A program made the position numbers and the translations under genes. 64,000 nucleotides of DNA from Vicinamibacterales bacterium (GTDB taxonomy: Bacteria; Acidobacteriota; Vicinamibacteria; Vicinamibacterales; Vicinamibacteraceae): assembly GCA_963816265.1 (NCBI GenBank), contig CAWFJQ010000003.1, positions 1,681,620-1,745,619 of the forward strand, given 5' to 3'. Numbering within the stretch: position 1 is the first letter of the stretch; each line of letters starts with the position of its first letter. Below the pieces are notes generated by a model. That model had not been told where the DNA came from, ran no database searches, and was given only the letters and a program-made list of their open reading frames with translations. This document shows positions 6,950-47,166 of the stretch, in pieces.

Positions 6950-7063
6950 ATGGGCGCGGGGCGGGAATCCCGAACACCTCGACGGCGGTCCGCAGGCCTG
7001 CCGCCGAACGCGGGGACTATCTCCGCATGACGCGGGAAATTCCCCTTCGCCGAGCCCCGCTCC

Positions 7064-9190
7064 TCAGTGCTCGGCCCGGCGCAGGGTCGACCGGATCCGG
7101 GCCAGGAACCGGTCGCCTTCGAGCGGCTTGCGGACGTAGTCGTTGGCTCCGGCGTCGAGCGACTGCACCTCCGTCTCGTCGCCCGCCGCCCCGGTGACGA
7201 CGACGACCGGCAGCAGACTGGTCGCGACGCGACCGCGCAGGCGGCGCAACACCTCGAGGCCGTCGATCCCCGGCATCGCCAGGTCGAGGACGATCAGCGA
7301 GACTGGCGGGCCGGACTCGACGCGGGCCAGCGCCTCGAGGCCGTCGGCAGCTTCCGAGACACGCATCCCCTGGCTGCGGAGCAGCGCCGCCGCCAACGCG
7401 CGCGACACGGGGTCGTCGTCCACCACCAGGATGTGCGCGGCGCTCTCCGGCTCGGCCGCCGGCGCATCCGCCTCGCCGAGCTCGCGGTCGATCTCCTCGA
7501 GGGTCGTCTCACCGGCCCGGACACGGGCCGCCGCCGCTTCGTGCAGCGACCGCATCCCGCCGGCGATTGCGGCGGCCTGCAGCGGCGACGCCGGCGCGCC
7601 GCCGATGATGGCGAGTTCCAGCGCCGGGCTCGCGACCATCACCTCGAGCAGCGGGATCCGGCCGTGGTAGCCGGTGTGGCTGCACGCCGCGCAGCCGATC
7701 GCCCGCACCACCGGCTCGACCCCGTAGCGCAAGGCGAGCCGCTGTTCGACCGGCGTCGCCGCGCCGCTGATCCGTTGGGCGCAGCGGGGGCAGATGCGGC
7801 GCACGAGCCGCTGCGCCGTCGCGCCGCGCAGCGTGCTGGCGATCTCGCCGCGCTCGACGCCGAGATCGGCGAGGCGGCCGACCGCGCCGACGGCGTCGTT
7901 GGTGTGCAGCGAGGCGAGCACGAGATGGCCGGTCAGGCTGGCCTGCACCGCGATGGCGGCGGTCTCGGCGTCGCGGATCTCGCCGATGAAGATGACGTCG
8001 GGATCCTGCCGCAGGATGGATCGCAACGCGGTGACGAAGGTGACGTCGCGCTTCGGCTCGACCTGGATCTGGGTCAGGCCGGGCAGCTCGTACTCGACCG
8101 GATCCTCGACCGTCATCACGTTCAGCTCGCCGGCCGGCATCTCGCGCAACGCCGCGTACAACAGCGTCGTCTTGCCGGATCCGGTCGGTCCGGTGACCAG
8201 CACGATGCCGTCGCGGTGGCCGAGCAGCGTCCGCAGCGGCGCCACCTCGCAGCTTTCGAGCGACAGGTCCTCGAGGCGCCGCGCGTTGCCCGGATCGAGC
8301 AGCCGGATGACCGCCTTCTCGGACTCGCGCGTCGGCACGGTCGACAGCCGCAGATCGATCGAGCGCTCGTCGATCCGGATGCGGGCCCGGCCGTCCTGCG
8401 GCCGCAGCCGGTCGGCGATGTCCATCTTGCCGATGATCTTGATGCGCGAGACGACCCGGTTCAGGATCGGCAGCGACAGCCGGGTGTAGGGCTGGAGCAC
8501 GCCGTCGACGCGAAACCGTACCCGGCCGCCGTCGCGGTCGGGTTCGATGTGGACGTCGCTGGCGCGCGCGTGGACCGCGTCGCGCAGGATCAGGCTGGTC
8601 AGGCGCATGATCGGCGCCGACTCGGCCTCGCGCGCGGCGACCGGCGCCGGGCCCGACTCCGTCTCGATGTGGACCGCCGACGCCAGACCCGCGCCGACGC
8701 TGCCGAGCAGCCGCTCGATGGCGCGGTCGGGCGCATAGTGAGCGTCGATCAGCTCCTGGATCGCGTCCGGCGGCGCCACCTCCAGCACCGGCCGCCGCCC
8801 AGTCACGAAGCCGACCAGGTGCTCGCCTTCGATGTCGAGCGGATCGGCCGCGGCGACGACGATCTCGTGGTCGCTCTCACGCAGGCCGATGAGGTGCCGC
8901 GCCCGCGCCAGCTTCTCGGGGATGAGGGCCACGGCCCGGGCCTGGATGGTGGCCAGGTCGGCGAGCCCAACATGGCGGCTGGCGGCGACCGCGGCGGCCG
9001 GCAGGGCCGGCGACACGCCGGCGGCCCGGGCGATCGTCCGCCACTGGTCGACGATGGTCGCGGCGGCCTCGAGCAGCGGCGCGTCACCGGTGAGAAGCCC
9101 GCTCTCGCGGGCGACCTCGAGCAGCCAGGGGGTGAGGTGGGCGTCGCGGGTCGGGTGGGCGGCGAGATCGTCGAGCGGGGATGTCGGCAT
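7064..9190 (-). CDS. GspE/PilB-family secretion ATPase fused to a C-terminal response-regulator receiver domain.
   Basis: Intact 708-aa ORF with these parts: a T2SSE N-domain; Walker A GPTGSGKTT; Asp box DPDVIFIGEIRD; LASLHTN; a tetracysteine CPRC..CAAC; then a REC domain (ILVVDDD..LIVLDLAMPGIDG..DYVRKP). Confidence 0.85.
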   Translation of the reverse strand: MPTSPLDDLAAHPTRDAHLTPWLLEVARESGLLTGDAPLLEAAATIVDQWRTIARAAGVSPALPAAAVAASRHVGLADLATIQARAVALIPEKLARARHLIGLRESDHEIVVAAADPLDIEGEHLVGFVTGRRPVLEVAPPDAIQELIDAHYAPDRAIERLLGSVGAGLASAVHIETESGPAPVAAREAESAPIMRLTSLILRDAVHARASDVHIEPDRDGGRVRFRVDGVLQPYTRLSLPILNRVVSRIKIIGKMDIADRLRPQDGRARIRIDERSIDLRLSTVPTRESEKAVIRLLDPGNARRLEDLSLESCEVAPLRTLLGHRDGIVLVTGPTGSGKTTLLYAALREMPAGELNVMTVEDPVEYELPGLTQIQVEPKRDVTFVTALRSILRQDPDVIFIGEIRDAETAAIAVQASLTGHLVLASLHTNDAVGAVGRLADLGVERGEIASTLRGATAQRLVRRICPRCAQRISGAATPVEQRLALRYGVEPVVRAIGCAACSHTGYHGRIPLLEVMVASPALELAIIGGAPASPLQAAAIAGGMRSLHEAAAARVRAGETTLEEIDRELGEADAPAAEPESAAHILVVDDDPVSRALAAALLRSQGMRVSEAADGLEALARVESGPPVSLIVLDLAMPGIDGLEVLRRLRGRVATSLLPVVVVTGAAGDETEVQSLDAGANDYVRKPLEGDRFLARIRSTLRRAEH

Positions 9191-9214
9191 GGGGAGCTCT
9201 CCGCCCGATCAGAG

Positions 9215-9230
9215 GGCAAGCTCCGTACCC
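9215..9230 (-). promoter_or_regulatory. Sigma-54 promoter candidate upstream of the GspE-REC gene.
   Basis: The reverse complement reads GGGTACGGAGCTTGCC, with correct GG/GC spacing. The -12 GC lies 26 nt from ATG 9190, with the SD GGAGAG in between. Confidence 0.4.
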
Positions 9231-9297
9231 ACGGGCGGCGCGTCCAGGCCGGCAGCCGTCGACCTGCGGCTGCATGAAACGGCTCGCGATTGGGTGG

Positions 9298-9669
9298 TCA
9301 GTCCGGCGGGAAGTTTTCGCTCCGCTGCGGGATTGTCCGCTCGGCGTCCCGCAGCATGATCAGGAGCATCCGCGACGCCTCCGGGGCGAGCACCGCGTGC
9401 GGCACGTTGGCGGGCATCAGCACGATCGTCTGCGGCGCTGTCCGCACCTCGACGCCGCCAATGGTCAGCGTCAGCGCGCCGGACAACGTCAGCGCCAGCG
9501 CGTCGAACGGCGCCGTGTGCTCCGAGAGCTCCTCGCCGGCATCGAACGCGAACAGCGTGATGTTGCCGGCCGCGGTGCGCGCCAGCACCCGGCTCGCGAT
9601 CCCCTGGGCGGTCGGCGTGACCAGTGACTCCAGCGTGAACAATTCTCCGGCCGGCAGCGTGCTTGCCAT
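9298..9669 (-). CDS. Cupin-domain protein.
   Basis: Start ATG 9669 is preceded by GGGGGAG. Reads MASTLPAGELFTLESL..ITLFAFDAGEELSEHTAPFDALALTLSGAL..VLMPANVPHAV. The upstream part of the 9298..9963 track ORF looks non-coding. Confidence 0.75.
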   Translation of the reverse strand: MASTLPAGELFTLESLVTPTAQGIASRVLARTAAGNITLFAFDAGEELSEHTAPFDALALTLSGALTLTIGGVEVRTAPQTIVLMPANVPHAVLAPEASRMLLIMLRDAERTIPQRSENFPPD

Positions 9670-9933
9670 GGTTACTCCCCCACCGCAGCACCGGCAGGCG
9701 TCCGATGATCGTCGAAGCTGTCCATGGTGAGGGCCCAGTCTGACGCCAGACGATGCGGTGTCAAGCGAAGAGTGATTCGCGCACCCGCTCAGGACAAGCG
9801 ACGCTGCGCCAGACGTGACGGATTCTCCGCCGTTCCGCAGGAATCCCCGGCCCTGAGGAATCTTCCGCGCGACGCGCCGACCGAGCCGTGGGCCGCGCTG
9901 GCTCGGCACGCCCGGGAGCGTCACCCCCGCGCA

Positions 9934-9949
9934 AGGCACGTCGCTTGCA
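9934..9949 (+). promoter_or_regulatory. Sigma-54 promoter candidate upstream of the lipoprotein-ubiB pair.
   Basis: Reads AGGCACGTCGCTTGCA. Its 15-mer GGCACGTCGCTTGCA is identical to the promoter upstream of the HPF-like gene at 47076-47091. It is intergenic and in the right orientation. Confidence 0.65.
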
Positions 9950-9961: not shown

Positions 9962-10985
9962 ATGCTACGCCGCCAGGCTGGATGCGTCGGCCGTCGAATG
10001 CGGCGGGACCTTCACCACGGGCTCCTGGGCCTCGCGGCGATCGCGATGGCCGGCTGCCAGCCCAGCCCTGAACGGGCCGCGACGGGCGGTCGCGCCCACC
10101 AGCCCGTCATCCGCCACAGTGACGTCCGGCCGTGCCGGCGCCGAGGCCACGCCGGCAGCCACCGCTCGCCCGGTCCCACTGCCGCCGGCCGGAGGCTCGG
10201 CGTTCGGCGACCGCATCGCGTTCCCACCGCGCAACGAGCCGTTCCAGTTCCGGCAGGCGCTCGAGGAGAAATACCGGTTCGGCCTGGGACGCGGGCCGAC
10301 GGCGACCTTCGTCGACGTCGAGGGGGACATCGTCTGGACGCAGGAGTACCTGCGCTATCGCGTCAACGGCTGCGACCACGACACCGCCGCGGCACGCGTC
10401 TTCAGCCAGATCCGCAGCGGCGCCATCGCCCCGACGTGCGGCGAGGCCCCGGAGGGGATGGTCGCCTTTCCACCGCGCAACGAACCGTTCGCGTTTCGCG
10501 TCGAGCTCGAAGCGTTCTACCGCGACGCGCTCCAGCGAGGCCTGACGTCGACCTTCGTCGACATCGAGGGCGACATCGTGTGGACCCAGGAATACCTGCG
10601 CTACCGGGTCAATGGCTGCGAGCACGTGCAGGCGACGGTCAACGTCCTGCGCCAGATCGACGGCGGCGGCATCGCGCCGATCTGCGCCGGCGTCCTGAAC
10701 GGCGTCTGGAACGGGGTGATGCTCGACTACCCGGGCGGGCGCACGTTCCGGATGGAGCTGTCGATGATCGGCGATCGCGTCACCGGCCGGATCACCGGCG
10801 ACGGCACCGGCGGCGGCGGCTTCATGACCGGGACGTATCCGGGCAGCGGACCGGTCCACCTCGAGGCCGACTTCGGCGACGGCAAGCAGTACTTCGACGG
10901 GGACTTCGACGGCGCGCAGAAGATCCGGGGCACGACGACCTACAACCTTCGGCCGCCCCGCTACCGCTTCGAGATGACGCGATGA
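9962..10985 (+). CDS. Putative lipoprotein with two tandem 82-aa modules and a C-terminal Gly-rich domain; one apparent frameshift near 10060-10110.
   Basis: The frame of ATG 9962/9998 gives the lipobox leader MRRDLHHGLLGLAAIAMAGC. The body is in the 9888 frame: FPPRNEPFQFRQALEEKYRF..VDVEGDIVWTQEYLRYRVNGCDH.., repeated as FPPRNEPFAFRVELEAFYRD..VDIEGDIVWTQEYLRYRVNGCEH... The stop overlaps the ubiB ATG. Confidence 0.65.
10221..10712 (+). repeat. Intragenic tandem duplication, 2 x about 246 bp, inside the lipoprotein gene.
   Basis: TTCCCACCGCGCAACGAGCCG.. at 10221 recurs as TTTCCACCGCGCAACGAACCG.. at 10467. The protein modules are clearly homologous. Confidence 0.75.
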
Positions 10986-12680
10986 ACGCGGCGGCACCGA
11001 CCAGACGGCGGATCGGGCGGGCGGTGCACGTCCGCCGCTACACCGAGATCGTCGGCATCCTCGTCCGCTACGGCTTCGTCGACGTCGTCGACGCGCTGCA
11101 TCTGGGGCCCTACCTCGCCGCCGGGCGGCGGATGCTCTCGGCCTTCGGCCGTCGCGACCAGCCGGAGGCGAGCCGGGCCGTCCGCCTCCGCCTCGCGTTC
11201 GAGGCGCTCGGGCCGACGTTCATCAAGTTCGGCCAGGCCCTGAGCACGCGGGCGGATCTGCTGCCGGCCGAGGTCGTCGCCGAACTGACGCTGCTCCAGG
11301 ACAACGTGCCGCCCCTGCCGGCAGGCGCGGCCGAGCGGGCGATCGAGGAGGCCACCGGGCGCCGCGTCGAGGATCTCTTCCTGGCGTTCGACCCGCAGCC
11401 GCTGGCGGCGGCGTCGATCGCCCAGGTGCACCGGGCGACGCTGCCGTCCGGCGAGCTCGTCGCGGTCAAGGTCCGGCGGCCCGGCCTGGCCGCCGTCGTC
11501 GAAGCCGATCTCGGCGATCCTGGCCGACCTGGCCGCGCTGGCGGAGCGCCATTGGCCCGACGCCGCGCTCTACAGCCTGGGCGAGCTGGTGGCCGAGTTC
11601 GCCCGGACCATCCGCCGCGAGCAGGACCTCGTGCGGGAGGGACGGCTGATCGAGCGGGTCGCGGCGCAGTTCGCCGGCGACGCCACCATCCGCCTGCCGC
11701 GGATCCACTGGCCGCTGAGCCGCGCGGCGGTGCTCACGATGGAGTTCCTGGACGGCGTGAAGGTGAGCGCCGTCGGCACCGACGAAGCCCCCGGCCTCGA
11801 TCGCCGCCTGGTGGCGCGGCGCGGCGCCGACGCGGTGCTGCGGCAGGTGCTGATCCACGGCTTGTTCCATGCCGACCCGCATCCCGGCAACCTGCTCGTC
11901 CTGCCGCAGAACGTCGTCGCCTTCGTCGACTTCGGCATCGTCGGCCGCCTCGATCGCCGGATGCGCGACCGGCTCGCCGAGATGGTCATGGCGATCCATG
12001 CCCACGACGCCGATCGGCTCGCCGGCATCGTCGTCGGCGTCGCCACGCCGCTGCGTCCGGTCGACGGGGCGGCGCTGTCGCGCGACCTCGACGAGATGCT
12101 GGACCAGTACGCGGGCCTGGCGCTGGGGCAGCTCTCGCTGCGGGCGCTGTTCGGGTCGATCACGGAGGCGATGGCCCGGCACCGCCTGAAGCTGCCGGCC
12201 GATCTCCTGCTGCTGATCAAGTCACTGACGACAATCGAGGCGGTCGGCCGTCAGCTCGACCCGGACTTCGAGATCGTGGAATACGCCACGCCGTTCGTGA
12301 CGGCGCTGCTCTCGGAGAAGCGGAGCCCGACGGCGGTGGCGCGCCGGACCGCCCGCGCCAGCCGCCGCGCCCTCCGCGCGATGGGAGCGGCGGCGACCGA
12401 CCTGGCCGAGATCACCCGACGCGTCCGGCGCGAGGGCGTCCAGGTGCAGTTCGTCCACCGCAACCTTGATCACTTCGTCCGCGAGATGGATCGGTCGAGC
12501 AATCGCCTCAGCTTCGCGATCGTCATCGCCGCGATCCTGATCGGCTCGTCGATCATCGTCCTGGCCGGCGCCGGTCCGCAGCTGCTCGGCTACCCGCTCC
12601 TCGGCCTGGCCGGGTTCCTGAGCGCCGCGATCCTCGGCCTCGGCCTCGCCGTGGGCGTCCTCCGCTCCGGGCGTCTGTGA
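10982..12680 (+). CDS. ubiB: UbiB/ABC1-family atypical kinase; one apparent frameshift near 11500-11590.
   Basis: Starts MNAAAPTRRRIGRAVHVRRYTEIVGILVRYGF..LGPTFIKFGQALSTRADLLP..AAASIAQVHRATLPSGELVAVKVRRPG. It continues in the 11589 frame with EFLDG..HADPHPGNLLV..FVDFGIVGRL and two C-terminal TM helices. Confidence 0.85.
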
Positions 12681-12707: not shown

Positions 12708-15700
12708 TCAACGATCGCGCGCGGGACGCGGCCGCCGGGCCAGCGCCTCGTTCAGCCGGGCGTCGTGGCGGTAGATGTCGTCGGCGAAGTAGACCTCGCC
12801 GTCCGCCGAGACGACGGCCGCGGTCGTGTAGAAGAGCACCACCCTGATCGGCGCCGCCAACTCCACCCGTGACGACACCGCGCCGGCCATCGCCGCCTCG
12901 ATCCGGGCCCGGTCCCAGCCCGTCTCGTCGCGCAGCACCCACTCGGCCAACGCCGTCGGGTCCTCGACCCGGACGCAGCCGTGGCTGAAGTCCCGGCGCT
13001 GCTGCTGGAACAACCCGACCGCCGGCGTGCCGTGCAGGTAGACGTCGGAGGCGTTGGGGAAGACGAATTTGACAAGGCCGAGCGCGTTGCCCGGGCCCGG
13101 TCGCTGGCGCAGCCGGAGCGTCCCGGCTCGCAGCCCGGCGAGTGCCGCCGCTGTCGCCGGGACCGCGTCGGCCTCGTCGCTCTGGCCGTCGACGATCTCG
13201 TAGTCGGCCGGGAGCCGCCGGGTCGGATCGCGCTCGAGTTCCGGCAGCATCTCCTTGAGCAGGATCGATCGCGGCACGTTCCAGTACGGCCGGAAGATCA
13301 CCGTTCGCATCAGGGCGGTGAACACCGGCGTCTCGGTGAGCAGCGCCCGTCCGACGATGACCCGCATCCGCAGCGCCGGTCGGGACGCGTCGGCGCCATC
13401 CCACGCCCCGAGCCGGAACATCGGGATGTTCAGCGCGACGATGCGCTCGTCGCCGGCATCGGGCAACCAGCGCAGCCGCTCGAGCGACAGCTCGATCTGG
13501 CGGATGCGCGCTCGCACGGGCACCGCCAGGGCGGCCCGTGTCGCACGCCCAAGCACACCGTCCGACGCCAGGCCGTGACGCGCCTGGAAGCGGCACACGC
13601 CAGCCACGAGCGTGTCGTCGTAGACGCCGGCGTCAGCGGCCGGCGGCGCATCCGCCGGCAGATCGCCGAACGCCGCCAGGCGCTGGCGCAGGGCGTTGGC
13701 CGTCTCCAGCCGGTCGCTCGGGCGGATCGCCTGCGGTACTGAAGGCCAGGCCGTGTCGGGCAGATCGCCGATGGCACGATACCGGGCCAGTTGGCGACGC
13801 AGCGCCTGGTACTGCGGGAGGGAAGGCGCCAGGGTGGCGGCAACGGCCGGCACGTCGTGCGCGGCCAACGCCGCCTGCAGGAGACCGACGAACGCATGGC
13901 GTTCGGGCTCGGCGTCGAGCGAGATGCCGAGCGACCGGGGATCGACGCGGCCCCGATGGACGTGACGGAAGTAGCGCAGCATCCCGGCGCTCAGCCGGAC
14001 GTCGAAGGCGGCCAGCCGTTCGGCGTCCGGCGCCGGCGCCGCGGCCACCGCCGCGGCCAGCTCGCGCAACGTGTCCAGGCCGTAGTCCGCCGGATCGAGC
14101 CCATCATCCGGCGCTGCGGCGAGCACGCCGATCGCCTCGCGCGCGTCTGTGGTGAGCCGTCCGGAGGCGTCGCTCCACAGGGCCAGGCCCGGTCCCGCAG
14201 CGTAGAGCGCGTCGAGCTCCGCTCGCTCGGACGCGGTGAGGCCAGCCGGGATCTGGCCAGCCGGGATCTGGCCCGTCGGGATCTGGCACGTCGGGCCGGC
14301 CCAGGCACTCGGTGGGAGCGACAGCGTCACGGCCAGCACGAGCAGGGCGTCCCGGGTCGAACGCGGCCAGCGCTTGACCGCTTGCCCCACCAGGGCCGGC
14401 AGGGCCGCCAGGCCGACGACGACCAGCCACTCGGTCCCATCGAGCGGCGTCAGTCCGATCGTCGACGCGATGCCGGGCACGGCGACCGACAGCCACTGCA
14501 GCCCCACCGCAACCGCGACGGCGAGCAGCGCGTAGGGATTGGCCAAGGCCCGCGACGGGTGCAGCACGTGGTGCGGGCTCCGGGCGTTGCCCAGATGGAA
14601 GATCTGGGTCAGGCCCAGCGTCATGAAGCAGACCGTCGTCGCGTGCCCCGGAGCACGGCCCAGCGCCCAGAGGAAGGCGGCCAGCGCCACGACCGTGATG
14701 AGCACGGCATAGAAGACGATCGAGCCGACGAACGAGGCGGACAGCAAGGCCTCGCGCGGATCCCGCGGCGGGCGCTTCATGACGTCGTGATCCGCCGGCT
14801 CCAGCGCCAGCGCCAGCGCCGGGAACGTGTCCGTGACCAGGTTCAGCCACAGGATCTGCAGCGGCAACAGCGGCAGCGGCAGCGCGGCCAGGCCCGCGAC
14901 CGTCAGCACGAGCACCTCGGCGAGGTTGCAGCTGAAGAGATAAAAGACGAACTTGCGGATGTTGTCGTAGACGACCCGGCCTTCCTCGACGGCGGCCGCG
15001 ATGGTCTCGAAGCGGTCGTCCTGCAGGACGATGGCGGCGGCCTCCTTCGCGACGTCGGTGCCGCGCCGGCCCATGGCGACGCCGACGTCCGCCTGCTTGA
15101 GGGCGGCGGCATCGTTGACGCCATCGCCCAGCATCGCGACCACGTCGCCCTGCTCCTGCAGCGACTGGACGACGCGCAGCTTGTCTTCCGGCGCGATGCG
15201 GCTGAACGCGCCCGCGGCGCTGATCCGCTCGCGCAGCTCGGCCGGCGACAGCCCCGCCAGCTCGCGGCCGTCGATCACCTCCGAGACGGCGCCGACGATC
15301 CCCAGCTCCCGGCCGACGGCGGCGGCCGTGTTGCGCTGATCACCGGTGAGCATGACGGTCCGCATGCCGGCCGCTCGCAGCCGGACGATCGTCTCCCGCA
15401 CGCCGTCGGCGGGCGGATCCATCAGCCCGACGAACCCGATGAAGGTCAGGCCGCCGAGGTGTGACTCGTCCGGCTGATCCACCGGGCCGCCCGCGACACC
15501 GAGCACGCGGAGGCCGCCGGCGGCGAGCCGCTCGTTGACGGCGACCAGCTCCGCCCGCCCAGCCTCGTCCAACGACTCGAGGCGACCGTTCCGGCGAACG
15601 TGCCGGCAGAGATCGACGATGCGGCCGGGCGCGCCCTTCACGCTGGCGACGACGGCGCCCGCTTCCCGACCGAAGGTGGCGGCCAGCTTGCGCTCGCTCG

Positions 15701-17030: not shown

Positions 17031-17496
17031 TGGCCGTGGCCGAATGCCGCGCCGGCGTGCCGACGCTGATCCCGGCGAGCACGTCGAGCACGGCGATCCG
17101 CAGCGGATCGGTGCCCGGCGCCTGGGCGGCCCACCGCACGATGTCGTCGATCGACACGATGCCGACCAGGACGCCCCCGTCCCCGAGCACCGGCAGGCGC
17201 CGCACGTGGTACTGCACCATCGTCAGCAAAGCCACGACGCTGTCGTCGTCCGGGGCGCAGCCAATCACCGGCTGCGTCATCACGTTGCGGGCCACCAGCG
17301 TCGACGCCGGCACGTCCCGTCTGCCGAGCGCGATGCAGGCATCACGGTCGGTGACGACGCCGACGGCCTCGCCGCGCTCGTTGACGACCGGCACGATACC
17401 GCACCCGTAGGTGCTCATGGTGTCGATGATGGAGCCCAGGTTGGTGTCGGGACCGCAGGTCCTGACCGTTCCGCCCATGATGGCCTTGATCTTCAT
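16999..17496 (-). CDS. CBS-pair domain protein.
   Basis: ATG 17496 is preceded by AAGGGAG. Reads MKIKAIMGGTVRTCGPDTNLGSIIDTMSTYGCGIVPVVNERGEAVGVVTDRD..VMTQPVIGCAPDDDSVVALLTMVQYHVRRLPVLGDGGVLVGIVSIDDI. The 3' end overlaps the ATPase start by 32 nt. Confidence 0.8.
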   Translation of the reverse strand: MKIKAIMGGTVRTCGPDTNLGSIIDTMSTYGCGIVPVVNERGEAVGVVTDRDACIALGRRDVPASTLVARNVMTQPVIGCAPDDDSVVALLTMVQYHVRRLPVLGDGGVLVGIVSIDDIVRWAAQAPGTDPLRIAVLDVLAGISVGTPARHSATASAGTVPAACS

Positions 17497-17529: not shown

Positions 17530-17545
17530 TGCAAGTCCGCCTCCA
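17530..17545 (-). promoter_or_regulatory. Sigma-54 promoter candidate upstream of the CBS and ATPase-Ldt genes.
   Basis: The reverse complement reads TGGAGGCGGACTTGCA: TGG and TTGCA at consensus spacing. It is intergenic, with the -12 element about 35 nt from ATG 17496. Confidence 0.35.
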
Positions 17546-17692
17546 AGGCCGCCCAGGGACGCCCCGTGGGCCAAGGGGTGCCGGCCCGCTGCCCCCGCCT
17601 GGCCGCTGCGCGCTATTCCCCACCCGTCGGGAACTTCCACGAAGGAACGCCCGCTACTGGGATCGCCGGCCGGCCGGCGGTGTGGCTCGTCG

Positions 17693-17708
17693 CGGCATCG
17701 CTCTTGCG
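17693..17708 (+). promoter_or_regulatory. Sigma-54 promoter candidate upstream of the 17745 gene.
   Basis: Reads CGGCATCGCTCTTGCG: GGCAT and TTGC at consensus spacing. It is divergent from the previous candidate. Confidence 0.4.
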
Positions 17709-22891: not shown

Positions 22892-22907
22892 TGCGCGTCC
22901 GGTGCCA
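22892..22907 (-). promoter_or_regulatory. Sigma-54 promoter candidate upstream of ppsA.
   Basis: The reverse complement reads TGGCACCGGACGCGCA. The -24 element is perfect and the -12 GC is correctly spaced, but the TT is missing. It lies 28 nt from ATG 22865. Confidence 0.4.
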
Positions 22908-23054
22908 GGCGCAGGCGACCTGCTCGAGTGGCATTTCGGCACGGCGGCCGTCGGCTCGCGCCGGCAGCTGTGGAAGATTCCACGCGGCCGAGGGATTTTG
23001 CCCGGGCGTCCGGCATTTCCCCGGCCAGGGCGCGCCCGCAGGCGAGCTGGCGGC

Positions 23055-23070
23055 GGGAAGGATTCTTGCG
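23055..23070 (+). promoter_or_regulatory. Weak sigma-54 promoter candidate upstream of the cytochrome c gene.
   Basis: Reads GGGAAGGATTCTTGCG: GG and TTGC at consensus spacing. It lies 27 nt before ATG 23096 with the SD in between. The -24 half is poor. Confidence 0.25.
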
Positions 23071-28112: not shown

Positions 28113-28128
28113 TGCAATGGATGGGCCC
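28113..28128 (-). promoter_or_regulatory. Sigma-54 promoter candidate upstream of the HemG-like gene.
   Basis: The reverse complement reads GGGCCCATCCATTGCA: GGC and TTGCA at consensus spacing. Intergenic. Confidence 0.4.
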
Positions 28129-28287
28129 GTGGCGGCGCGGCTCCGCGCGCTTGCTTCCGCGGCGGCCGGCGCCGGCCGCGGGGAATTCTCCCAGCGGTCG
28201 CGGATGTTTCCCCTTCCCCGGGGCCGTCGTCCTCGCGCCCTGCCCACCGTCGCCCACTTCGACGGCCGAAAGGCCAGACGGCGGACC

Positions 28288-28303
28288 GGGCATACGGCTT
28301 GCT
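28288..28303 (+). promoter_or_regulatory. Sigma-54 promoter candidate upstream of the small wHTH gene and the diheme cytochrome gene.
   Basis: Reads GGGCATACGGCTTGCT: GGCA and TTGCT at consensus spacing. It lies 25 nt before ATG 28327, with GGAG in between. Confidence 0.45.
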
Positions 28304-28551: not shown

Positions 28552-28600
28552 GGTCCGGCTCGGCGCCCGAGGACCCTTTCCATCGACCCGGGAGGCTTGC

Positions 28601-29359: not shown

Positions 29360-29499
29360 CGCTCTCGGCGGCCACTCCATCCAGAAAAACTCCGCGGCTA
29401 TGGGGAATTGTGCGCGATCCGCCTGCGGATCGGGTGCCCCAATCGGTCGTGGTCGGCGTCGGGCTGCGTGTTCACGTGGCGCGCCGGTGGTGCCGGCTT

Positions 29500-29515
29500 C
29501 GGCACGGCACATGCA
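29500..29515 (+). promoter_or_regulatory. Sigma-54 promoter candidate upstream of the USP and ADH genes.
   Basis: Reads CGGCACGGCACATGCA, matching 10 of the 12 defined positions. It is intergenic and about 70 nt before ATG 29586. The leader contains the palindrome TGCGGACGCAGTCCGCA (29531-29547). Confidence 0.55.
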
Positions 29516-35323: not shown

Positions 35324-35339
35324 TGCAAGATCCCATCCG
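35324..35339 (-). promoter_or_regulatory. Weak sigma-54 promoter candidate upstream of the SRPBCC operon.
   Basis: The reverse complement reads CGGATGGGATCTTGCA: GG and TTGCA at consensus spacing. It lies 23 nt from ATG 35302 with the SD in between. The -24 half is poor. Confidence 0.3.
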
Positions 35340-35473
35340 GGCCGAGCCGCCCCCTTCCGGCGCTCGATGGCAGACGACGAGCCGCGGACTATCGCGCAGC
35401 GAGCGGGAGGAATTCCGCACCCCGACACCGGGCTGTGCGCTCGCCGACCGATTTCCCGCTGGCTCGATTCTTG

Positions 35474-36563
35474 ATGCGATCGGGCGCCCGGATGGATCTG
35501 CCAGCCGGCATCGAACAGGCGCGCCTGCTGGCGCAGTTCAAGTACGCCCTCGATCAGGCCGCCATCGTGGCCATCACCGATCGCGGCGGGCGCATCACCT
35601 ACGCCAACGATCGCTTCTGCGCCATCTCGCAGTACGCCCGGGAGGAGCTGCTCGGGCAGGATCATCGCCTGGTCAATTCAGGCCTCCACTCGCACGAGTT
35701 CATGGCCGACCTGTGGCGGACCATCACCGGCGGCCGGGTCTGGCGCGGCGAGCTCCGCAACCGGGCCAAGGATGGCTCGCACTACTGGGTCGACACCACC
35801 ATCGTGCCGCTGCTCGACGAGAGCGGCCGATCGCAGCAGGACCCTGGCGATCCGCTACGACGTGACCCAGCGCAAGGCGGCCGAGATCAAGCTGCGGGAA
35901 CAGGCGGCGCTCGCCAAGCTCGGCGAGCTCGCCGCGATTGTGGCGCACGAGGTGCGGAACCCGCTCGCCGGCCTCCGCGGCTCGCTCCAGGTGCTGGGCA
36001 CACGCATCCCGCCCGGCATGCGGGGCGGCGAAATCATCGGCGCCATGGTGGAGCGCATCGACGCCCTGGCCGACCGCGTCTCCGACATCCTGATGCTGGC
36101 GGCGGCACGCGAGGCGCGGCTGCGGCCAGTGCGTCTCGGCCCGATCCTCGTCGAGGCGGCGATGAGCGCCCACGCCGCCGTGCCGGGCGTGCCGATGCCG
36201 GTGCTGGCCGAGGCCAATCCCGAGGTCGTCGCCGATCCGGAGATGTTGCGCGAGCTGTTGCTGAACCTGGTGATGAACGCCTGTCAGGCGTCGCGGACGC
36301 ACACCAGCGAGGCCGTCCGCGTCCAGGTCACGACCGCTGACGGCTCGTGCCGGATCGAGGTGCTCGATTGCGGCAGCGGCATCGATCCCGGCATCCGCGA
36401 CCGCATCTTCGAGCCGTTCTTCACCACCAAGCATGGCGGGACCGGACTGGGCCTGGCCATCGTCAAGCGCCTGGTCGACCTCCAGGGCGGCGGCGTGACC
36501 CTCGGCGACCGCGAGGGCGGCGGCGCCTGCGCCCGGGTGACGCTCCCCATCCACCAGCGCTGA
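35474..36563 (+). CDS. Soluble PAS-domain sensor histidine kinase; one apparent frameshift near 35830-35850; the start is uncertain (35435, 35474 or 35492).
   Basis: PAS domain: [68 protein letters not shown]. The next frame reads [11 protein letters not shown].., then the H-box [13 protein letters not shown], the N-box [12 protein letters not shown], and the G-boxes DCGSGI and GGTGLGLAI. Confidence 0.8.
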
Positions 36564-36635: not shown

Positions 36636-38000
36636 ATGCGCAATGCCACGATCCTCGTCGTCGACGACGAGCAGCTCGTTCGGTGGTCCCTCAGCGAGCG
36701 ACTGCGGGCCGACGGCTACCGCGTCGTCGAAGCCGCCACCGGCCAGGACGCCCTCGATCGCGCCGCTGACGGCGTCGACCTGGTGCTGCTCGACTACAAG
36801 CTGCCCGACACCGACGGCGTGACCGTGCTGCGCAAGATCAAGGAGCAGGACCCGGACATCCTCGTCATCCTGCTCACCGCCTACGCCACCGTCGAAACCG
36901 CGGTCGAGGCGATGAAGATCGGCGCCTACCACTTCGCCAACAAGCCCTTCAACCTCGACGACATCTCGCTGACGGTCGCCAAGGCGCTCGAGACGACGCA
37001 GCTGCGCCGCGAAGTGCGGATGCTGCGGGCCAGCCAGGCCCAGCCCTACGGCTTCGACCGCATCGTCGGCGAATCGCCGGTGATGGGCGCGCTGCGGGAG
37101 CTGCTCCGCAAGGTGGCCGCCAGCCCGGCGTCGACCGTGCTCCTGACCGGCGAGAGCGGCACCGGCAAGGACCTGGCCGCCAAGGTCCTCCATTTCAACA
37201 GCCAGCGCGCCAGCCGGCCGTTCGTCAACATCACCTGCTCGGCGATCCCCGAGGCGCTGCTCGAAAGCGAGCTGTTCGGTCACGAGCGTGGGGCGTTCAC
37301 CGACGCGCGCCAGCAGAAGCGCGGGCTGTTCGAGCAGGCCGACGGCGGCACCGTCTTTCTCGACGAGATTGGCGAGATGGTGCCGGCCCTCCAGGCCAAG
37401 CTGCTGCGCTTCCTCGAAGAGAAGTCGTTCAAGCGCGTCGGCGGGGCGCACGACATCACGGTCGACGTGCGCGTGGTGGCGGCCACCAACCGCAACCTCG
37501 AGGAACAGGTGCGCGCCGGCCAGTTCCGCGAGGATCTCTTCTACCGGTTGAACGTACTGCCGATCGTCCTGCCGTCGCTGCGGGGCCACCTCGACGACGT
37601 CCCGGCCCTGGTCGACTTCTACATCGATCAGTTCAACCGGGAGTTCCGCAAGAGCGTGCGCGGCACGTCGCCCGACGCAGCCCGCGATCTCCGCGCCTAC
37701 GGGTGGCCGGGCAATGTCCGTGAAGTGCGCAACGCCGTCGAGCGGGCCATGCTGCTCGCCGACGGCGACTGGCTCGAGCCACACGACTTCCCCGCCGTCG
37801 CGGTGCGCCGTCAGGCCGGGCACGACATCGCGCTGCCGGCCGACGGCGTCGACCTCGAGCAGCTCGAGAAGAGCCTGGTCGTCCAGGCCCTCGAGCGAAG
37901 CGGCCACAACCAGACGCGCGCCGCCGCGCTCCTCGGTCTCAACCGCGATCAGATCCGCTATCGCATCGAAAAGTTCGGCTTGATGAAGCCGGCCTCGTAG
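36636..38000 (+). CDS. Sigma-54-dependent response regulator (NtrC/AtoC family enhancer-binding protein).
   Basis: Intact 454-aa ORF. REC domain ([20 protein letters not shown]). AAA+ domain ([48 protein letters not shown]). C-terminal Fis-type HTH. Confidence 0.9.
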
Positions 38001-38031: not shown

Positions 38032-38197
38032 CTAGTCCCCTGGAACCGTGATAGCTGGGACAAGTCCCGGAGCGCGGCGCCCCGCGGGCAAGGCGCGACG
38101 AGGAAGGATATTGGGCATATTCGACCGAGGAGCAACGCCGCCCCCGGGGATGCCCCGCCCGGGAATTGTTCTAGAAATCACGGTTCCAGGGGACTAG
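38032..38197. repeat. 166-bp nested-palindrome repeat element, copy E1.
   Basis: The arms are a perfect 21-bp inverted repeat: CTAGTCCCCTGGAACCGTGAT (38032-38052) and ATCACGGTTCCAGGGGACTAG (38177-38197). The core is conserved with the copies at 5319 and 56597. It lies between convergent genes, and the right arm contains the TAG stop of the 38194 gene. Confidence 0.85.
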
Positions 38198-42104: not shown

Positions 42105-43256
42105 GTGCCTGTTCGAGTGACGCCGCTGCGGCAGATGGCGGCGCTGACCTGCTGGCTGGCAGCGCTGGCCGGCGTGTCGGCGCAGTCGAGGCGGGCCGAC
42201 GTCCCGCCCGTGGCGACCGCCGCGCCGGCGCTGGCTGCGGCCGCGACCGGCGAGGAGGTCTACCGGGCGGCCTGCCTCACCTGTCACGGCCAGCGTGGCA
42301 CCGGATCGCCGCGATCGGTCGTCGGCTTCGACACGGCGCTGCCCGACTTCACGGACTGCGCCTTTGCGTCCGCGGAAGCCGATGCCGATTGGCATGCCGT
42401 CGTGCACGAGGGTGGCCGGATTCGCGGCCTGGCGCGGCGCATGCCGGCGTTCGGCGACGCGCTGAGCGACGCGAACATCGCAGCGGTCATCGGCTACGTC
42501 CGGCAGTTCTGCACCGATCGCGCCTGGCCGTCGGGTGACCTGAACCTGCCGCGAGCGATGTTCACCGAGAAGGCGTTCCCGGAGAACGAGGTCGTCTACA
42601 CGAGCACGATCGCCCGCGGCGACGATGCCGTCGTCGGCAGCCAGGTCGTCTACGAGCGCCGCATCGGCGCGCGCAACCAGATCGAGGCCGTCGTGCCGGT
42701 CGACCGGGTGAAGCACGACGGCAGCTGGCGAACGGGCCTCGGAGACGTGGCGCTCGCCTTCCGACGTACCGTCTTCGCCAGCCGCCGGAGCGGAACGGTG
42801 GCGGCTGCCGGCGCCGAGGTGGCCTTCCCCACCGGAGACGCCGCCAGCGGTCTCGGCAACGGGCACCGCGTCGTCGAGCCTTTCGCGATGGTCGGCCAGG
42901 TCCTCCCGCGCAACGCCTTCCTCCAGGTGCACGGGGGGCTCGAGATTCCCTCGGACGGGTCGGCCGCCAAGGAGGCCTACCTGCGGAGCGCCGTGGGCTT
43001 CACCTACCTGGCGGACCGGAGTTTCGGCCGCGCCTGGTCGCCGCAAGTCGAGGTACTGTTCGCCAGGCCGTTCGGCGGCTCCGCCGAATGGGATGTCGTG
43101 CCGCAGATGCAGGTGACGCTGTCGAAGATCCAGCACGTCAGCGTGGCCGGCGGCGTGCGCATCCCGCTGAGCCAGCGCGGCGAGCGCGGGGCCGCCGTCG
43201 TCAGCTATCTGCTCTGGGACTGGTTCGACGGTCCGTTCACCAGCTTCTGGAAGTAG
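42105..43256 (+). CDS. Fusion of a class I cytochrome c domain and a predicted outer-membrane beta-barrel.
   Basis: Intact 383-aa ORF. Signal ..WLAALAGVSAQS. Heme motif CLTCH with a distal RRMPAFG. After that come about 250 aa of alternating-hydrophobic strands (about 12), ending ..GPFTSFWK. Confidence 0.7.
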   Translation: MPVRVTPLRQMAALTCWLAALAGVSAQSRRADVPPVATAAPALAAAATGEEVYRAACLTCHGQRGTGSPRSVVGFDTALPDFTDCAFASAEADADWHAVVHEGGRIRGLARRMPAFGDALSDANIAAVIGYVRQFCTDRAWPSGDLNLPRAMFTEKAFPENEVVYTSTIARGDDAVVGSQVVYERRIGARNQIEAVVPVDRVKHDGSWRTGLGDVALAFRRTVFASRRSGTVAAAGAEVAFPTGDAASGLGNGHRVVEPFAMVGQVLPRNAFLQVHGGLEIPSDGSAAKEAYLRSAVGFTYLADRSFGRAWSPQVEVLFARPFGGSAEWDVVPQMQVTLSKIQHVSVAGGVRIPLSQRGERGAAVVSYLLWDWFDGPFTSFWK

Positions 43257-43258
43257 CG

Positions 43259-44938
43259 ATGCGGCGACCTCCGCGGCCACCGTCCCACGCCCTGCTCGGC
43301 TGTGCCGGCCTGGCGCTGCTGCTCGCCGTGTCGCTGCGGGCGCAGTCGCCGCCGAGCGCCGGCACGAAGAGTGGACCGCCGGCGCGCCACGCAGCGGCGG
43401 CGCCCTTCAGCCATTCCGACGACTGCGTCGCCTGTCACAACGCCCTGACCGCCCCGTCCGGCGAAGACGTGTCGATCGGCGCCGCGTGGCGGTCGACGAT
43501 GATGGCCAACTCCGCCCGCGATCCCTACTTCCACGCGAGTCTCCGCCGGGAGACGATGGACCATCCGACGCGGGCCGCCGAGATCCAGGACGAATGCGCC
43601 GCCTGCCACGTGCCGATCGGGCACCGGACGGCACATGCCGCCGGCCGTTCCGCAGTCGTGCTCCAGGCCCTCGACGGAGGCGGCACGGCCGCGGCCGCGG
43701 CCGAGCCCGACCGGCTGGCGGGCGACGGCGTCTCGTGCACCGTCTGTCACCAGATCGCGCCTGACGGACTGGGGTCGCCGGCCTCGTTCAACGGCAACTT
43801 CGTCGTGCGACCGCCGCGCGCCGACGGCGTCCGCGAAGCCTTCGGGCCGTTCGACGTGGATCCGGGCCGGCACACGATCATGCGCTCGGTCACCGGCTTC
43901 GAGCAGGTCGAAGGCGGGCACGTCCGCCAGTCGGAGCTGTGCGCCACCTGCCACACCCTCATCACCCAGGCGTTCGATCGCGACGGACGCGTGATCGGCT
44001 CGCTGCCGGAACAGATGAACTACCAGGAGTGGCGGCACAGCGCCTTCTACGACGAAGGGCGCAGCTGCCAGAGCTGTCACATGCCGAGGGCCGCGGGACC
44101 GATCCGGGTCTCGTCCGTGCTCGGCGCCGAGCGCGACGGGTTGTCCCGTCATGCCTTCGTCGGCGGCAACGCCTTCATGCTGCGGCTGCTCAACCGCTTC
44201 CGCGACGAGCTCGGCGTCGAGGCGCCGCCGGAGGCGCTCGAGGCCACCGCGCGTCTGACGGAGCGTCAGCTCAGCTACGACACGGCGACGGTCGAGGCGA
44301 CGGCGCCCCAGCGATCCGGCGACGGCATCGAGTTCGACGTCGTCGTGCGCAACCTCACCGGCCACAAGTTCCCGACCGGCTATCCGTCCCGGCGCGCCTG
44401 GCTGCACGTGACCGTGACCGACGACGGCGGCCAGGTGCTGTTCGAGTCGGGCGCGACGGCGCCGGACGGATCCATCGCCGGCAGCGACAGCGACGCCGAT
44501 GCGCAGGCCTTCGAGCCGCACTACGACGTGATCGATCGGCCGGAGCAGGTCCAGATCTACGAGTCCGTCATGGGCGACGTGGCGGCACGGCCGACGACGG
44601 GGCTGCTGTCCGCCGTGCGCTACCTGAAGGACAACCGGCTGCTGCCGCGCGGCTTCGACAAGCGGACGGCGCCCGCGGAGATTGCCGTCGTCGGGGACGC
44701 GGTCACCGACGCCTCGTTCGCCGCCGGCGCCGATCGCCTCCGCTACCGGGTGCGGATCCCCGCGGATCGCCGGCTGGGACGGGTTGCGGTGGAACTCCGG
44801 TATCAGCCGATCGCGTATCGCTGGGCCCGCAACCTCGGCACCTACGCGGCCCCTGAGCCGGCCCGCTTCGTGAGCTTCTTCGACCAGCTGGCGAGCGCCG
44901 CTTCGGTGATCGTCGCGACAGCCGCGCGGGACAACTAG
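43259..44938 (+). CDS. Exported pentaheme c-type cytochrome.
   Basis: ATG 43259 with signal ..LLLAVSLRAQS. Five CXXCH motifs: CVACH, CAACH, CTVCH, CATCH and CQSCH. The C-terminal domain contains NLTGHKFPTGYPSRRAWL. Confidence 0.85.
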   Translation: MRRPPRPPSHALLGCAGLALLLAVSLRAQSPPSAGTKSGPPARHAAAAPFSHSDDCVACHNALTAPSGEDVSIGAAWRSTMMANSARDPYFHASLRRETMDHPTRAAEIQDECAACHVPIGHRTAHAAGRSAVVLQALDGGGTAAAAAEPDRLAGDGVSCTVCHQIAPDGLGSPASFNGNFVVRPPRADGVREAFGPFDVDPGRHTIMRSVTGFEQVEGGHVRQSELCATCHTLITQAFDRDGRVIGSLPEQMNYQEWRHSAFYDEGRSCQSCHMPRAAGPIRVSSVLGAERDGLSRHAFVGGNAFMLRLLNRFRDELGVEAPPEALEATARLTERQLSYDTATVEATAPQRSGDGIEFDVVVRNLTGHKFPTGYPSRRAWLHVTVTDDGGQVLFESGATAPDGSIAGSDSDADAQAFEPHYDVIDRPEQVQIYESVMGDVAARPTTGLLSAVRYLKDNRLLPRGFDKRTAPAEIAVVGDAVTDASFAAGADRLRYRVRIPADRRLGRVAVELRYQPIAYRWARNLGTYAAPEPARFVSFFDQLASAASVIVATAARDN

Positions 44939-46111: not shown

Positions 46112-46586
46112 CGAGCGGTCGCGCCGCGATTTCCTGCACCATGGAGCCTGCGCACTGCTCACGGCTGGCGCGCTGGGCCTGTCGTCGCTCGACGTCTCGG
46201 CCCTCCCGGTGTCGTTCGTGACCGCCGTGACCGCCGCGGGAGAGCGTCGCTATCCGCTTCCCGCCGCCGACGGCGTGAGCATCGATCGGGTGGCGCAGGT
46301 CATCCTCGTCCGGGCCGGGCGGAGCGTCTACGCGATGGCGCTCGCCTGCCCGCACCAGAACGCGGCGGTCAAGTGGGTGGAGAAAGAACACCGGTTCCAG
46401 TGCTCGAAGCACGACTCGCGCTACACGCCCGATGGCAGCTACACCTCGGGGCGGGCGACGCGGAACCTCGATCGTTTCCCCGTCCGGCTGGAGGGCGATA
46501 CCGTCGTCGTCGGCACCGATCACGTCTTCCGCTCGGATCAGGACAAGGGCGCCTGGAGCGCGGCTCACGTCGAGCTGCCGGCGTGA
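46101..46586 (+). CDS. Tat-exported Rieske [2Fe-2S] domain protein.
   Basis: Twin-arginine leader SRRDFLHHGACALL. Cluster ligands ACPHQ (CxH) and QCSKHDS (CxxH). Confidence 0.8.
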   Translation: MSCSERSRRDFLHHGACALLTAGALGLSSLDVSALPVSFVTAVTAAGERRYPLPAADGVSIDRVAQVILVRAGRSVYAMALACPHQNAAVKWVEKEHRFQCSKHDSRYTPDGSYTSGRATRNLDRFPVRLEGDTVVVGTDHVFRSDQDKGAWSAAHVELPA

Positions 46587-46622
46587 CCGTCCGGCTCTGC
46601 TGATTCGCCCTCGCGGCCGCCG

Positions 46623-46997
46623 TTACTGACGGACCGCCGCGCGCTGCCGCACCCTGGCCAGCCGGCGGCCGGCGTAGGTCTGCAGGATCCGGCCGGCCGA
46701 CTCGAACGCCTCGTGCATCGCGTGCAGCCAGCGATATTCGGCGATCGGCGGGCGTTGCCCATCGGGCATCGCGGTTCCCTCCGGCTCGGATTCGTACAAC
46801 GCGACCAGCTGTTCGTTGGGAACGCTCACTTCGACGACGACCCGCAGCATCCCGGCGTCATTCGGCTCCAGGAGCACGCGGCAATCGACGATACGGCCAC
46901 AGAACCGATCGAGGCGGCCGGCCTGGTCACGCGCGTACTCCTCGAGATCGGCCCGCGCCGACATGTGGCGGAAGGTGACGTAGACGGGCGTGGACAT
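46623..46997 (-). CDS. HPF/RaiA-like ribosome-associated (sigma-54-modulation family) protein.
   Basis: Reads MSTPVYVTFRHMSARADLEEYARDQAGRLDRFCGRIVDCRVLLEP..LRVVVEVSVPNEQLVA... This is a beta-alpha-beta-beta-beta-alpha pattern typical of the family. Assigned from motif memory. Confidence 0.55.
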   Translation of the reverse strand: MSTPVYVTFRHMSARADLEEYARDQAGRLDRFCGRIVDCRVLLEPNDAGMLRVVVEVSVPNEQLVALYESEPEGTAMPDGQRPPIAEYRWLHAMHEAFESAGRILQTYAGRRLARVRQRAAVRQ

Positions 46998-47075
46998 GAT
47001 GGCCCTCCCTCGGATCGTGGCGTGTCGCGCGCTGACTCGGCCGCGAGGCCGGAGAGCGCCCGCAGCCGCATGACG

Positions 47076-47091
47076 TGCAAGCGACGTGCCC
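47076..47091 (-). promoter_or_regulatory. Sigma-54 promoter candidate upstream of the HPF-like gene.
   Basis: The reverse complement reads GGGCACGTCGCTTGCA, matching 11 of the 12 defined positions. It is intergenic and about 80 nt from ATG 46997. Confidence 0.65.
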
Positions 47092-47166
47092 GTCCTGGTC
47101 CCCTGGAACCGCCACGAAGTCGGGGGCGGATGCGGAACATTCCGCGCCTGCTGGGGATTCTTCGGG

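Follow-up and report, generated by a model that had tools for sequence, protein, structure and literature searches.

Conserved, paired GGAA/TTCC dyads upstream of a sigma-54-like promoter cluster in a Vicinamibacterales genome, candidate sites of a local NtrC-family activator

INTRODUCTION

Vicinamibacterales (phylum Acidobacteriota) are abundant, mostly uncultured bacteria of soils and sediments, and, to our knowledge, how Acidobacteria regulate transcription has hardly been studied. Here, we analyze a 64,000-nucleotide stretch of a Vicinamibacterales genome (assembly GCA_963816265.1, contig CAWFJQ010000003.1, positions 1,681,620 to 1,745,619, forward strand; hereafter, "the window"), in which short palindromes of the form GGAA-N(0-2)-TTCC lie in front of a cluster of genes with sigma-54-like promoters. 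Such promoters carry −24/−12 (GG-N10-GC) elements, and the upstream activator sequences that serve them lie roughly 70 to 200 bp further upstream. The original prediction, which was made from the DNA sequence, held that the palindromes recur 45 to 95 bp upstream of the −24/−12 motifs and that they are upstream activator sequences for an enhancer-binding protein (EBP). We find that the palindromes are real, conserved DNA sites that are paired upstream of the sigma-54 promoter cluster, and comparisons with related genomes support the view that GGAA-N(0-4)-TTCC forms the core of upstream activator sequences.

RESULTS

The locus and its candidate sites. Genes in the window were mapped with a codon-position G+C model and Pfam. 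Between approximately 5.5 and 47 kb, the intergenic regions contain 11 to 12 GG-N10-GC promoters, most of which have TTGC at −12 and several of which form divergent pairs. Behind these promoters lie genes for an NMO-like oxidoreductase; an ABC1 kinase; a CBS protein and a P-type ATPase; two hypothetical proteins; ppsA; a cytochrome c and a second P-type ATPase; a Flavodoxin_5 protein; a small open reading frame (ORF) and a cytochrome c′-like protein; a universal stress protein (USP) and a Zn-alcohol dehydrogenase (ADH); an SRPBCC operon; and an HPF-like ribosome hibernation factor. In their midst is an operon that encodes a histidine kinase and an NtrC-family response regulator. Two other candidate promoters, 27110 and 38644, were dropped as they fall inside ORFs and have no dyad. 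All eight palindromic strings named in the original prediction are present where it had placed them; together with their partners and promoters, they are as follows (window coordinates; strand is that of the promoter or gene).

6934..6949, minus strand: sigma-54-like promoter TGGCCGCACTCTTGCT of the NMO-like gene (5500-6918)
7013..7024: degenerate second dyad GGGACTATCTCC, centre 20 bp from the 7034 main dyad
7034..7045: main dyad GGGAAATTCCCC, core GGAA-A-TTCC, ~90 nt upstream of the NMO-like gene promoter
9820-9828: third candidate dyad GGATTCTCC, 37.5 bp from the 9857 main dyad
9840..9848: second dyad GGAATCCCC, 1-2 mismatches, centre 18 bp from the 9857 main dyad
9857..9866: main dyad GGAATCTTCC, ~72 nt upstream of the 9934 promoter
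9934..9949, plus strand: sigma-54-like promoter AGGCACGTCGCTTGCA of the ABC1/UbiB-type kinase gene (~9962-12680, broken frame)
17530..17545, minus strand: sigma-54-like promoter TGGAGGCGGACTTGCA of the CBS-domain gene (16999-17496) and the P-type ATPase gene (12708-17030)
17612..17619: degenerate second dyad GCTATTCC, centre 18.5 bp from the 17630 dyad
17630..17638: main dyad GGAACTTCC, between the divergent 17530 and 17693 promoters
17693..17708, plus strand: sigma-54-like promoter CGGCATCGCTCTTGCG of hypothetical genes 17745-18278 and 18313-18840
22892..22907, minus strand: sigma-54-like promoter TGGCACCGGACGCGCA of ppsA (20441-22864)
22972..22981: main dyad GGAAGATTCC, flanked by the divergent promoters of ppsA and the cytochrome c gene
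22992..23021: degenerate dyads GGGATTTTGCC (+20.5 bp from the 22972 dyad) and GGCATTTCC(CC) (+39.5 bp)
23055..23070, plus strand: sigma-54-like promoter GGGAAGGATTCTTGCG of the cytochrome c gene (23096-23515) and a P-type ATPase gene
28113..28128, minus strand: sigma-54-like promoter GGGCCCATCCATTGCA of the Flavodoxin_5 (HemG-like) gene (27574-28056)
28180..28192: dyad GGGGAATTCTCCC with core GGAATTCTCC (1 mismatch), flanked by the divergent 28113 and 28288 promoters
28202..28212: second dyad GGATGTTTCC(C), 1 mismatch, centre 20 bp from the 28180 dyad
28288..28303, plus strand: sigma-54-like promoter GGGCATACGGCTTGCT of an ORF (28299-28667) and the cytochrome c′-like gene (28601-29359)
29384-29393: degenerate partner GAAAAACTCC, 19 bp from the 29402 dyad
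29402..29410: weakest candidate dyad GGGGAATTG, 2 mismatches
29500..29515, plus strand: sigma-54-like promoter CGGCACGGCACATGCA of the USP gene (end 30083) and the Zn-ADH gene (30092-31204)
35324..35339, minus strand: sigma-54-like promoter CGGATGGGATCTTGCA of the SRPBCC gene (33515-35302) and downstream genes
35409..35416: main dyad GGAATTCC, with the SRPBCC operon on one side and the kinase/activator operon on the other
35435..36563, plus strand: histidine kinase with a flavin-type PAS domain, frame broken near 35839
35460..35475, plus strand: doubtful promoter TGGCTCGATTCTTGAT before the kinase/activator operon, −12 TTGA rather than TTGC
36636..38000, plus strand: NtrC-family enhancer-binding response regulator with receiver (REC) domain, AAA+ domain with GAFTDA, and HTH_8; candidate binder of the dyads
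46623-46997: hibernation-factor-like gene, behind sigma-54-like promoter GGGCACGTCGCTTGCA (47076..47091, minus strand)
47134..47143: main dyad GGAACATTCC, ~48 nt upstream of the HPF promoter
47154..47164: degenerate second dyad GGGATTCTTCG, centre 20.5 bp from the 47134 dyad

The palindromes are confined to intergenic DNA with sigma-54-like promoters. Exact GGAA-N(0-2)-TTCC occurs six times in the window, compared to a mean of 0.97 and a maximum of 3 across 100 dinucleotide shuffles. All six matches are located inside the 1,790 bp of intergenic DNA that holds the sigma-54-like promoters. When this DNA is shuffled with its dinucleotides kept, the mean is 0.10, and none of 2,000 shuffles reaches six. 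There are no exact matches in the 3,384 bp of other intergenic DNA of the window or in its 58.8 kb of coding DNA, which is the opposite of the equal frequency that the original prediction had named as grounds for abandoning it. The 28180 and 29402 sites depart from GGAA-N(0-2)-TTCC by one and two mismatches, respectively. Measured from the first base of the promoter 16-mer, the centres of the dyads in the window lie 48 to 102 nt upstream, close to the range that had been proposed. A dyad screen re-found the promoter itself (as GCA-N7-TGC) and yielded GGA-N4-TCC, and no further palindrome stood out in it; Rfam and tRNA scans of the window were empty. The string GGAATTGTTCT occurs at 38162-38172, in the convergent intergenic region that follows the activator gene. 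Because no promoter lies close by, it is unlikely to be functional.

The sites come in tandem and may be phased on the helix. The half-site is Y-G-S-GGAA, with no conservation at positions outside Y-G-S, so that the whole dyad reads YGSGGAA-N(0-4)-TTCCSCR and spans approximately 16 bp. The variability of the central spacer, which had been flagged from the start as a weakness, is real and wider than first described, with 0 to 4 bp observed and 2 to 3 bp the commonest. When second sites with at most one mismatch are mapped relative to 27 perfect sites, they fall almost only at 18 to 20 bp centre to centre; when two mismatches are allowed, there is a sharp peak at 18 to 21 bp, that is, two helical turns, with small bumps near 40 and 60 bp. 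The pairs usually combine one strong and one degenerate dyad, sometimes with a third. Seven of the window's eight regions include a partner dyad 18 to 21 bp away, with three sites (at 0, +20.5, and +39.5 bp) in the 22972 region; the exception is the 35409 region, where the nearest qualifying site is 40 bp off. The cleanest tandem example is in a related locus, L162 (19423-19450), where two perfect GGAATTCC dyads are positioned exactly 20 bp apart between divergent sigma-54-like promoters of an ADH gene and a USP gene. CTAT elements found 20 bp from the palindromes were considered as −10 boxes of an extracytoplasmic function (ECF) sigma factor promoter with GGAAT at −35, and were rejected: they are degenerate second dyads, and no −10-like position is conserved.

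In the relatives, the dyad centres are found 48 to 115 nt upstream of the promoter; overall, the sites precede one promoter or a divergent pair by 50 to 115 bp. The distances from dyad centre to the −24 GG cluster at approximately 50, 60, 72, 81, 91, 102, and 114 nt, and they follow a period of 10.5 bp (R = 0.45, n = 32, Rayleigh P ≈ 0.0015; three periods were tried, and some of the sites are non-independent). This phasing is suggestive of dyads placed on a fixed face of the helix relative to the promoter.

The motif is retained in front of orthologous promoters. For the comparative analysis, we used loci around orthologues of the window's activator (61 to 91% identity; L001-L007, L081-L095, L098, L101, L112, and L161-L163); among the matches listed in contig scans with the activator, the orthologues are 61 to 75% identical. 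Three close relatives (P0005, P0003, and P0009) were compared by gene lists only. The orthologue loci share the gene families USP, ppsA, ADH, CBS, P-type ATPase, and hyp18313. Motifs were counted in the window plus 27 orthologue loci (346 kb), of which the zone 30 to 160 nt upstream of sigma-54-like promoters makes up 3.5%. GGAA-N(0-4)-TTCC occurs 20 times in this zone and 21 times outside it, whereas the same half-sites with a spacer of 5 to 12 bp occur 0 times in the zone and 25 times outside. In the same 346 kb, the reversed arrangement, TTCC-N-GGAA, shows no zone enrichment at short spacers. Matches to GGAAGTTCCGCGAGGA in the relatives were excluded, as they belong to the coding sequence of the activator (its GKFREDL motif).

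The enrichment varies with which activator is encoded nearby. Per kilobase, the motif density in the 27 orthologous loci is 1.52 in the zone versus 0.07 outside, while in 135 loci of unrelated activators from other taxa (39 to 55% identity) it is 0.26 versus 0.14; the enrichment is therefore approximately 20-fold in the former and approximately 2-fold in the latter. A count by promoter agrees. Upstream of 48 promoters with TTGC at −12, the perfect motif occurs 16 times (shuffled upstream DNA, 0.58, maximum 3; downstream control, 1), and the motif with at most one mismatch occurs 36 times (shuffled, 9.5, maximum 15; downstream control, 8). In the relatives, promoter and motif precede genes for a USP, an ADH, ppsA, a P-type ATPase, and the activator itself. 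Since the orthologous regions without a perfect motif keep one-mismatch variants, such as GGAAATTCG in the ppsA/USP region and GTGAATTTCC in the ADH region of L004, we see retention of the motif, sometimes with one mismatch, and not the loss from orthologous promoter regions that had been set down as evidence against the prediction.

The candidate binder is an NtrC-family activator. The protein encoded at 36636-38000 has the make-up of a cognate EBP, with a REC domain, an AAA+ domain (Sigma54_activat, E = 1.5e−68), and a Fis-type helix-turn-helix (HTH) domain (HTH_8, E = 2.3e−13). Its nearest solved structures are Aquifex NtrC4 (4L4U, E = 7.5e−103) and NtrC1 (1NY5). The protein scores below every NCBIfam equivalog cut-off (AtoC, 459 of 714 bits; NtrC, 398 of 558.6; ZraR, 384 of 760; NtrX, 380 of 600), and by these curated thresholds it is not NtrC, AtoC, or ZraR. 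Its relatives are labelled "AtoC" by JGI annotators. Those relatives that carry taxon names (78 to 95% identical proteins) come from metagenome-assembled Vicinamibacteraceae or Vicinamibacterales of the Acidobacteriota. The sigma-54 contact loop, ESELFGH-x3-GAFTDA (residues 210-224), has GAFTDA in place of GAFTGA, as do 116 of 120 relatives and 56 of 159 activators of the fetched loci, those of Geobacter and Desulfuromusa included; although it looked odd, GAFTDA is a common natural variant that is also frequent in other phyla.

Several observations suggest that this activator and the dyads belong together. The 13-residue recognition helix is conserved among the activator orthologues, and the number of zone motifs per promoter is 0.16 where the locus encodes an activator with this DNA-binding domain, compared to 0.02 to 0.05 in the other loci. 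In L001, L090, and L095, a sigma-54-like promoter and the motif are found directly before the activator gene; a dyad also stands in front of the L161 activator gene and of the window's kinase/activator operon. More distantly, a metagenome-derived Anaerolineales genome (L010) encodes an activator that is 48% identical overall and has a similar recognition helix, SRDQLRYRLEKY. At 2680-2870 of that locus is the same type of 20-bp tandem, GCAAATTTCCCC-N8-GGGAAATTCCCC, approximately 125 bp upstream of a strong TGGCAC-N5-TTGC promoter, TGGCACGAGTCTTGCT. Strong sigma-54-like promoters are also preceded by similar single motifs at L050 8497 (GGGAAAAATTCCCC) and L117 4836 (CCGGAAATTCCC).

The partner kinase has a flavin-type PAS domain. 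The PAS domain of the kinase encoded at 35435-36563 matches PAS-A of MmoS (3EWK, E = 5.6e−37, ~70% identity over 92 residues), as well as Aer (8DIK, E = 4.2e−19) and NifL (2GJ3, E = 4.6e−13). The PAS domains of MmoS, Aer, and NifL bind flavin adenine dinucleotide (FAD) and sense redox state (PMC9668731). The window kinase resembles these proteins in the sequence of its PAS core and differs from them in consisting of a single PAS domain plus HisKA and HATPase; flavin binding is predicted for it. The kinase core falls far below the NCBIfam equivalog cut-offs of both AtoS (175 of 646 bits) and ZraS (149 of 479 bits).

Neighbouring genes and transcripts. Metatranscriptome contigs from sediment, ice, and groundwater (88 to 99% identity) cover ppsA across window positions 20441-22868. 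This cover stops at 22868, leaving approximately 14 nt to the start that the −12 element predicts, and none of these contigs spans 22889-23024. The cover agrees with the predicted start; it is too coarse for mapping and is no proof of it.

Several gene models at the locus are unusual or broken. The minus-strand interval 12708-17030 is a single 1,440-amino-acid ORF that combines Scaffold, PG_binding_1, and YkuD (L,D-transpeptidase) domains with a complete cation P-type ATPase; this represents either an uncommon fusion or read-through of two genes. The ABC1 profile is split by a frame change over ORFs 9962-12469 and 11589-12680, and the second P-type ATPase (23523-26248) has its E1-E2 and hydrolase domains in different frames, while its L003 orthologue is one 841-amino-acid ORF. 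Because there are multiple frameshifts within one locus, indel errors in the assembly are suggested. On the minus strand at 7064-9190, ending just upstream of the 7034 dyad, is a gene for a type II/IV secretion ATPase (T2SSE with MshEN) with a C-terminal receiver domain. Multihaem c-type cytochromes adjoin the activator in the window (42105-44938), and in L161, L162, and L163 their position is taken by NrfH/NrfA-like and MtrB/PioB-type genes. Because such genes adjoin the activator, the regulon may include alternative respiration.

DISCUSSION

The dyads have all of the computable features of enhancer sites: position, dyad symmetry, multiple sites, a suggestive preference for one face of the helix, and a candidate cognate EBP. 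The interpretation of the palindromes as upstream activator sequences for an EBP, which the original prediction had put forward, thus gains support from the link to promoters, the cross-species enrichment, the tandem arrangement, the phasing, and the motif before the activator gene. We regard it as very probable that the sites belong to the local NtrC-family regulator or a close paralogue of it. Comparative sequence evidence further suggests that the 36636 protein itself is the likely binder.

We propose a model in which the FAD-type PAS histidine kinase (35435-36563) would sense redox or oxygen state and phosphorylate the REC domain of the NtrC-family activator (36636-38000). Activator dimers would then occupy the tandem dyads through the Fis-type HTH and assemble an active AAA+ ring, which, via DNA looping, would remodel the sigma-54 holoenzyme at the approximately 11 to 12 promoters. 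The genes driven in this way would include those for the USP, the Zn-ADH, ppsA, the HPF-like hibernation factor, the CBS protein, and the P-type ATPases, as well as c-type cytochromes, the flavodoxin-like protein, the SRPBCC protein, the ABC1 kinase, and the NMO-like oxidoreductase; in the relatives, the activator gene itself may also be driven. Control of the regulon by redox or hypoxia is plausible, with the case for and against it close to balanced, and only from the gene content do we infer a role in survival of hypoxia or energy limitation.

Several observations count against this interpretation. The central spacer of 0 to 4 bp is unusual for a rigid dimer. The simple promoter consensus TGGCAC-N5-TTGCW is non-discriminating in DNA of 71% G+C, with 86 matches in the window and approximately 76 in shuffles; because it gives so many chance matches, our promoter calls rest on intergenic position and on TTGC at −12. 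The promoter of the kinase/activator operon in the window is without the GC of the −12 element. The kinase is split in two frames near 35839 (35800-35880), and its L004 orthologue aligns continuously over the break, which is either an assembly error or the mark of a pseudogene. The loci of relatives are not fully independent samples. In L050 and L117, the activator that adjoins the motif has a different DNA-binding domain; these motifs may represent a wider use of the element or chance matches. Lastly, many relatives have two or three paralogous activators near these genes.

The last two observations bear on whether the dyads, while regulatory, are bound by another protein, either a paralogous NtrC-family activator from another part of the genome or a co-regulator or repressor that is not an EBP and sits between divergent promoters. 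A paralogue could be the actual binder because the relatives so often encode several nearby; the spacer classes could reflect different binders; and the window is only 64 kb of a 4.35-Mb contig. We nevertheless consider a different binder unlikely, as the motif tracks the orthologues of the 36636 activator and their recognition helix, precedes the activator gene in several relatives, and has the position, tandem spacing, and helical phasing expected of enhancer sites. The window encodes one other regulator, which is of the OmpR type, a family that binds direct repeats.

Two further explanations fare worse. GGAAC and GGAAT resemble the −35 boxes of ECF promoters, and islands of A/T could bend G+C-rich DNA, so the dyads might be read as an ECF-type promoter element or as architectural elements. 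We consider this very improbable: no conserved −10-like element is found 15 to 20 nt from either half-site, and ECF promoters are not characterized by dyad symmetry, a 20-bp tandem, or a fixed relation to flanking −24/−12 elements. The least credible explanation is that the pattern reflects chance or base composition, given that A/T-rich words are tolerated in, and likelier to occur in, the intergenic DNA of a 71% G+C genome. The sigma-54 intergenic regions have a G+C content of 70%, like the rest of the window (71%), and yet contain six sites where their shuffled versions contain 0.10, while the other intergenic DNA has none. Together with the spacer and orientation controls and the recurrence across species, this effectively refutes the chance explanation.

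The preferred interpretation, enhancer sites of an NtrC-family activator, can be set beside known systems. The general features of NtrC sites, including the tandem sites of glnAp2, offer a comparison, and the window resembles them in its activator (REC, AAA+, and Fis-type HTH), in having multiple dyad-symmetric sites of approximately 16 to 17 bp roughly 100 bp upstream of −24/−12 promoters, and, in the relatives, in an activator gene that is itself preceded by promoter and motif. The enteric NtrC site is TGCACC-N5-GGTGCA; here, in contrast, it is YGSGGAA-N(0-4)-TTCCSCR, with a variable centre and a tight tandem of 18 to 21 bp, and the regulon is without nitrogen-assimilation genes. AtoS/AtoC and ZraS/ZraR provide the best NCBIfam matches for the activator and the kinase core, but the window proteins lie far below the equivalog cut-offs, have no ato or zra targets, and include a flavin-type PAS sensor. 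The mechanism, an NtrC-family activator with upstream sites, is textbook; what is specific to this system is the sequence of its sites, their variable centre, and the tight 20-bp tandem. Our full-text searches yielded no description of this activator, its motif, its regulon, sigma-54 in Vicinamibacteria, or GGAA/TTCC enhancer sites.

In gene content, the locus resembles two systems associated with low oxygen and dormancy. The DosR regulon of Mycobacterium tuberculosis, which is under a NarL-type regulator, includes CBS-domain and ribosome-hibernation proteins, and the low-oxygen (lxa) locus of Burkholderia cenocepacia has regulatory boxes that presumably lie at sigma-70 promoters. The lxa locus is described as encoding USPs, a Zn-ADH, a cytochrome c, a cation-transporting ATPase, and a 2-nitropropane dioxygenase; its gene classes overlap those of the DosR regulon, and its motif is an FNR/Anr-like TGA-N6-TCA box (PMC3721108). 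The window shares with these systems the classes of several USPs, Zn-ADH, cytochrome c, P-type ATPase, and NMO (PMC3721108), along with a single palindromic motif that is repeated at many intergenic points of one locus. The window differs in its −24/−12 promoters and AAA+ EBP, and low-oxygen induction is hypothetical here. The window motif, GGAA-N(0-4)-TTCC, is not an FNR/Anr box (TGA-N6-TCA or TTGAT-N4-ATCAA). Because the lxa locus uses an FNR-like TGA-N6-TCA motif, any likeness would be functional and not mechanistic.

We tentatively conjecture, with a little more doubt than belief, that Vicinamibacterales run a DosR/lxa-like programme for survival of low oxygen and energy starvation (USPs, ribosome hibernation, ppsA, ADH, P-type ATPases, and cytochromes) entirely through sigma-54, with a flavin-PAS kinase and an NtrC-family activator that reads flexible-spacer tandem dyads 20 bp apart, and that the pairing of helix and motif may reach other phyla, as in Anaerolineales. 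If this is true, a gene set that is usually under FNR- or DosR-type regulators would be run by sigma-54 and an ATP-dependent activator. The analysis yields a concrete cis-element (with consensus, tandem spacing, and phasing), a candidate trans-factor and sensor, and a conserved set of targets, and the dyad model is usable for regulon prediction in hundreds of metagenome-assembled Vicinamibacteria genomes. It also offers a model, open to direct testing, for the way in which these abundant soil bacteria may switch to survival under low oxygen or low energy.

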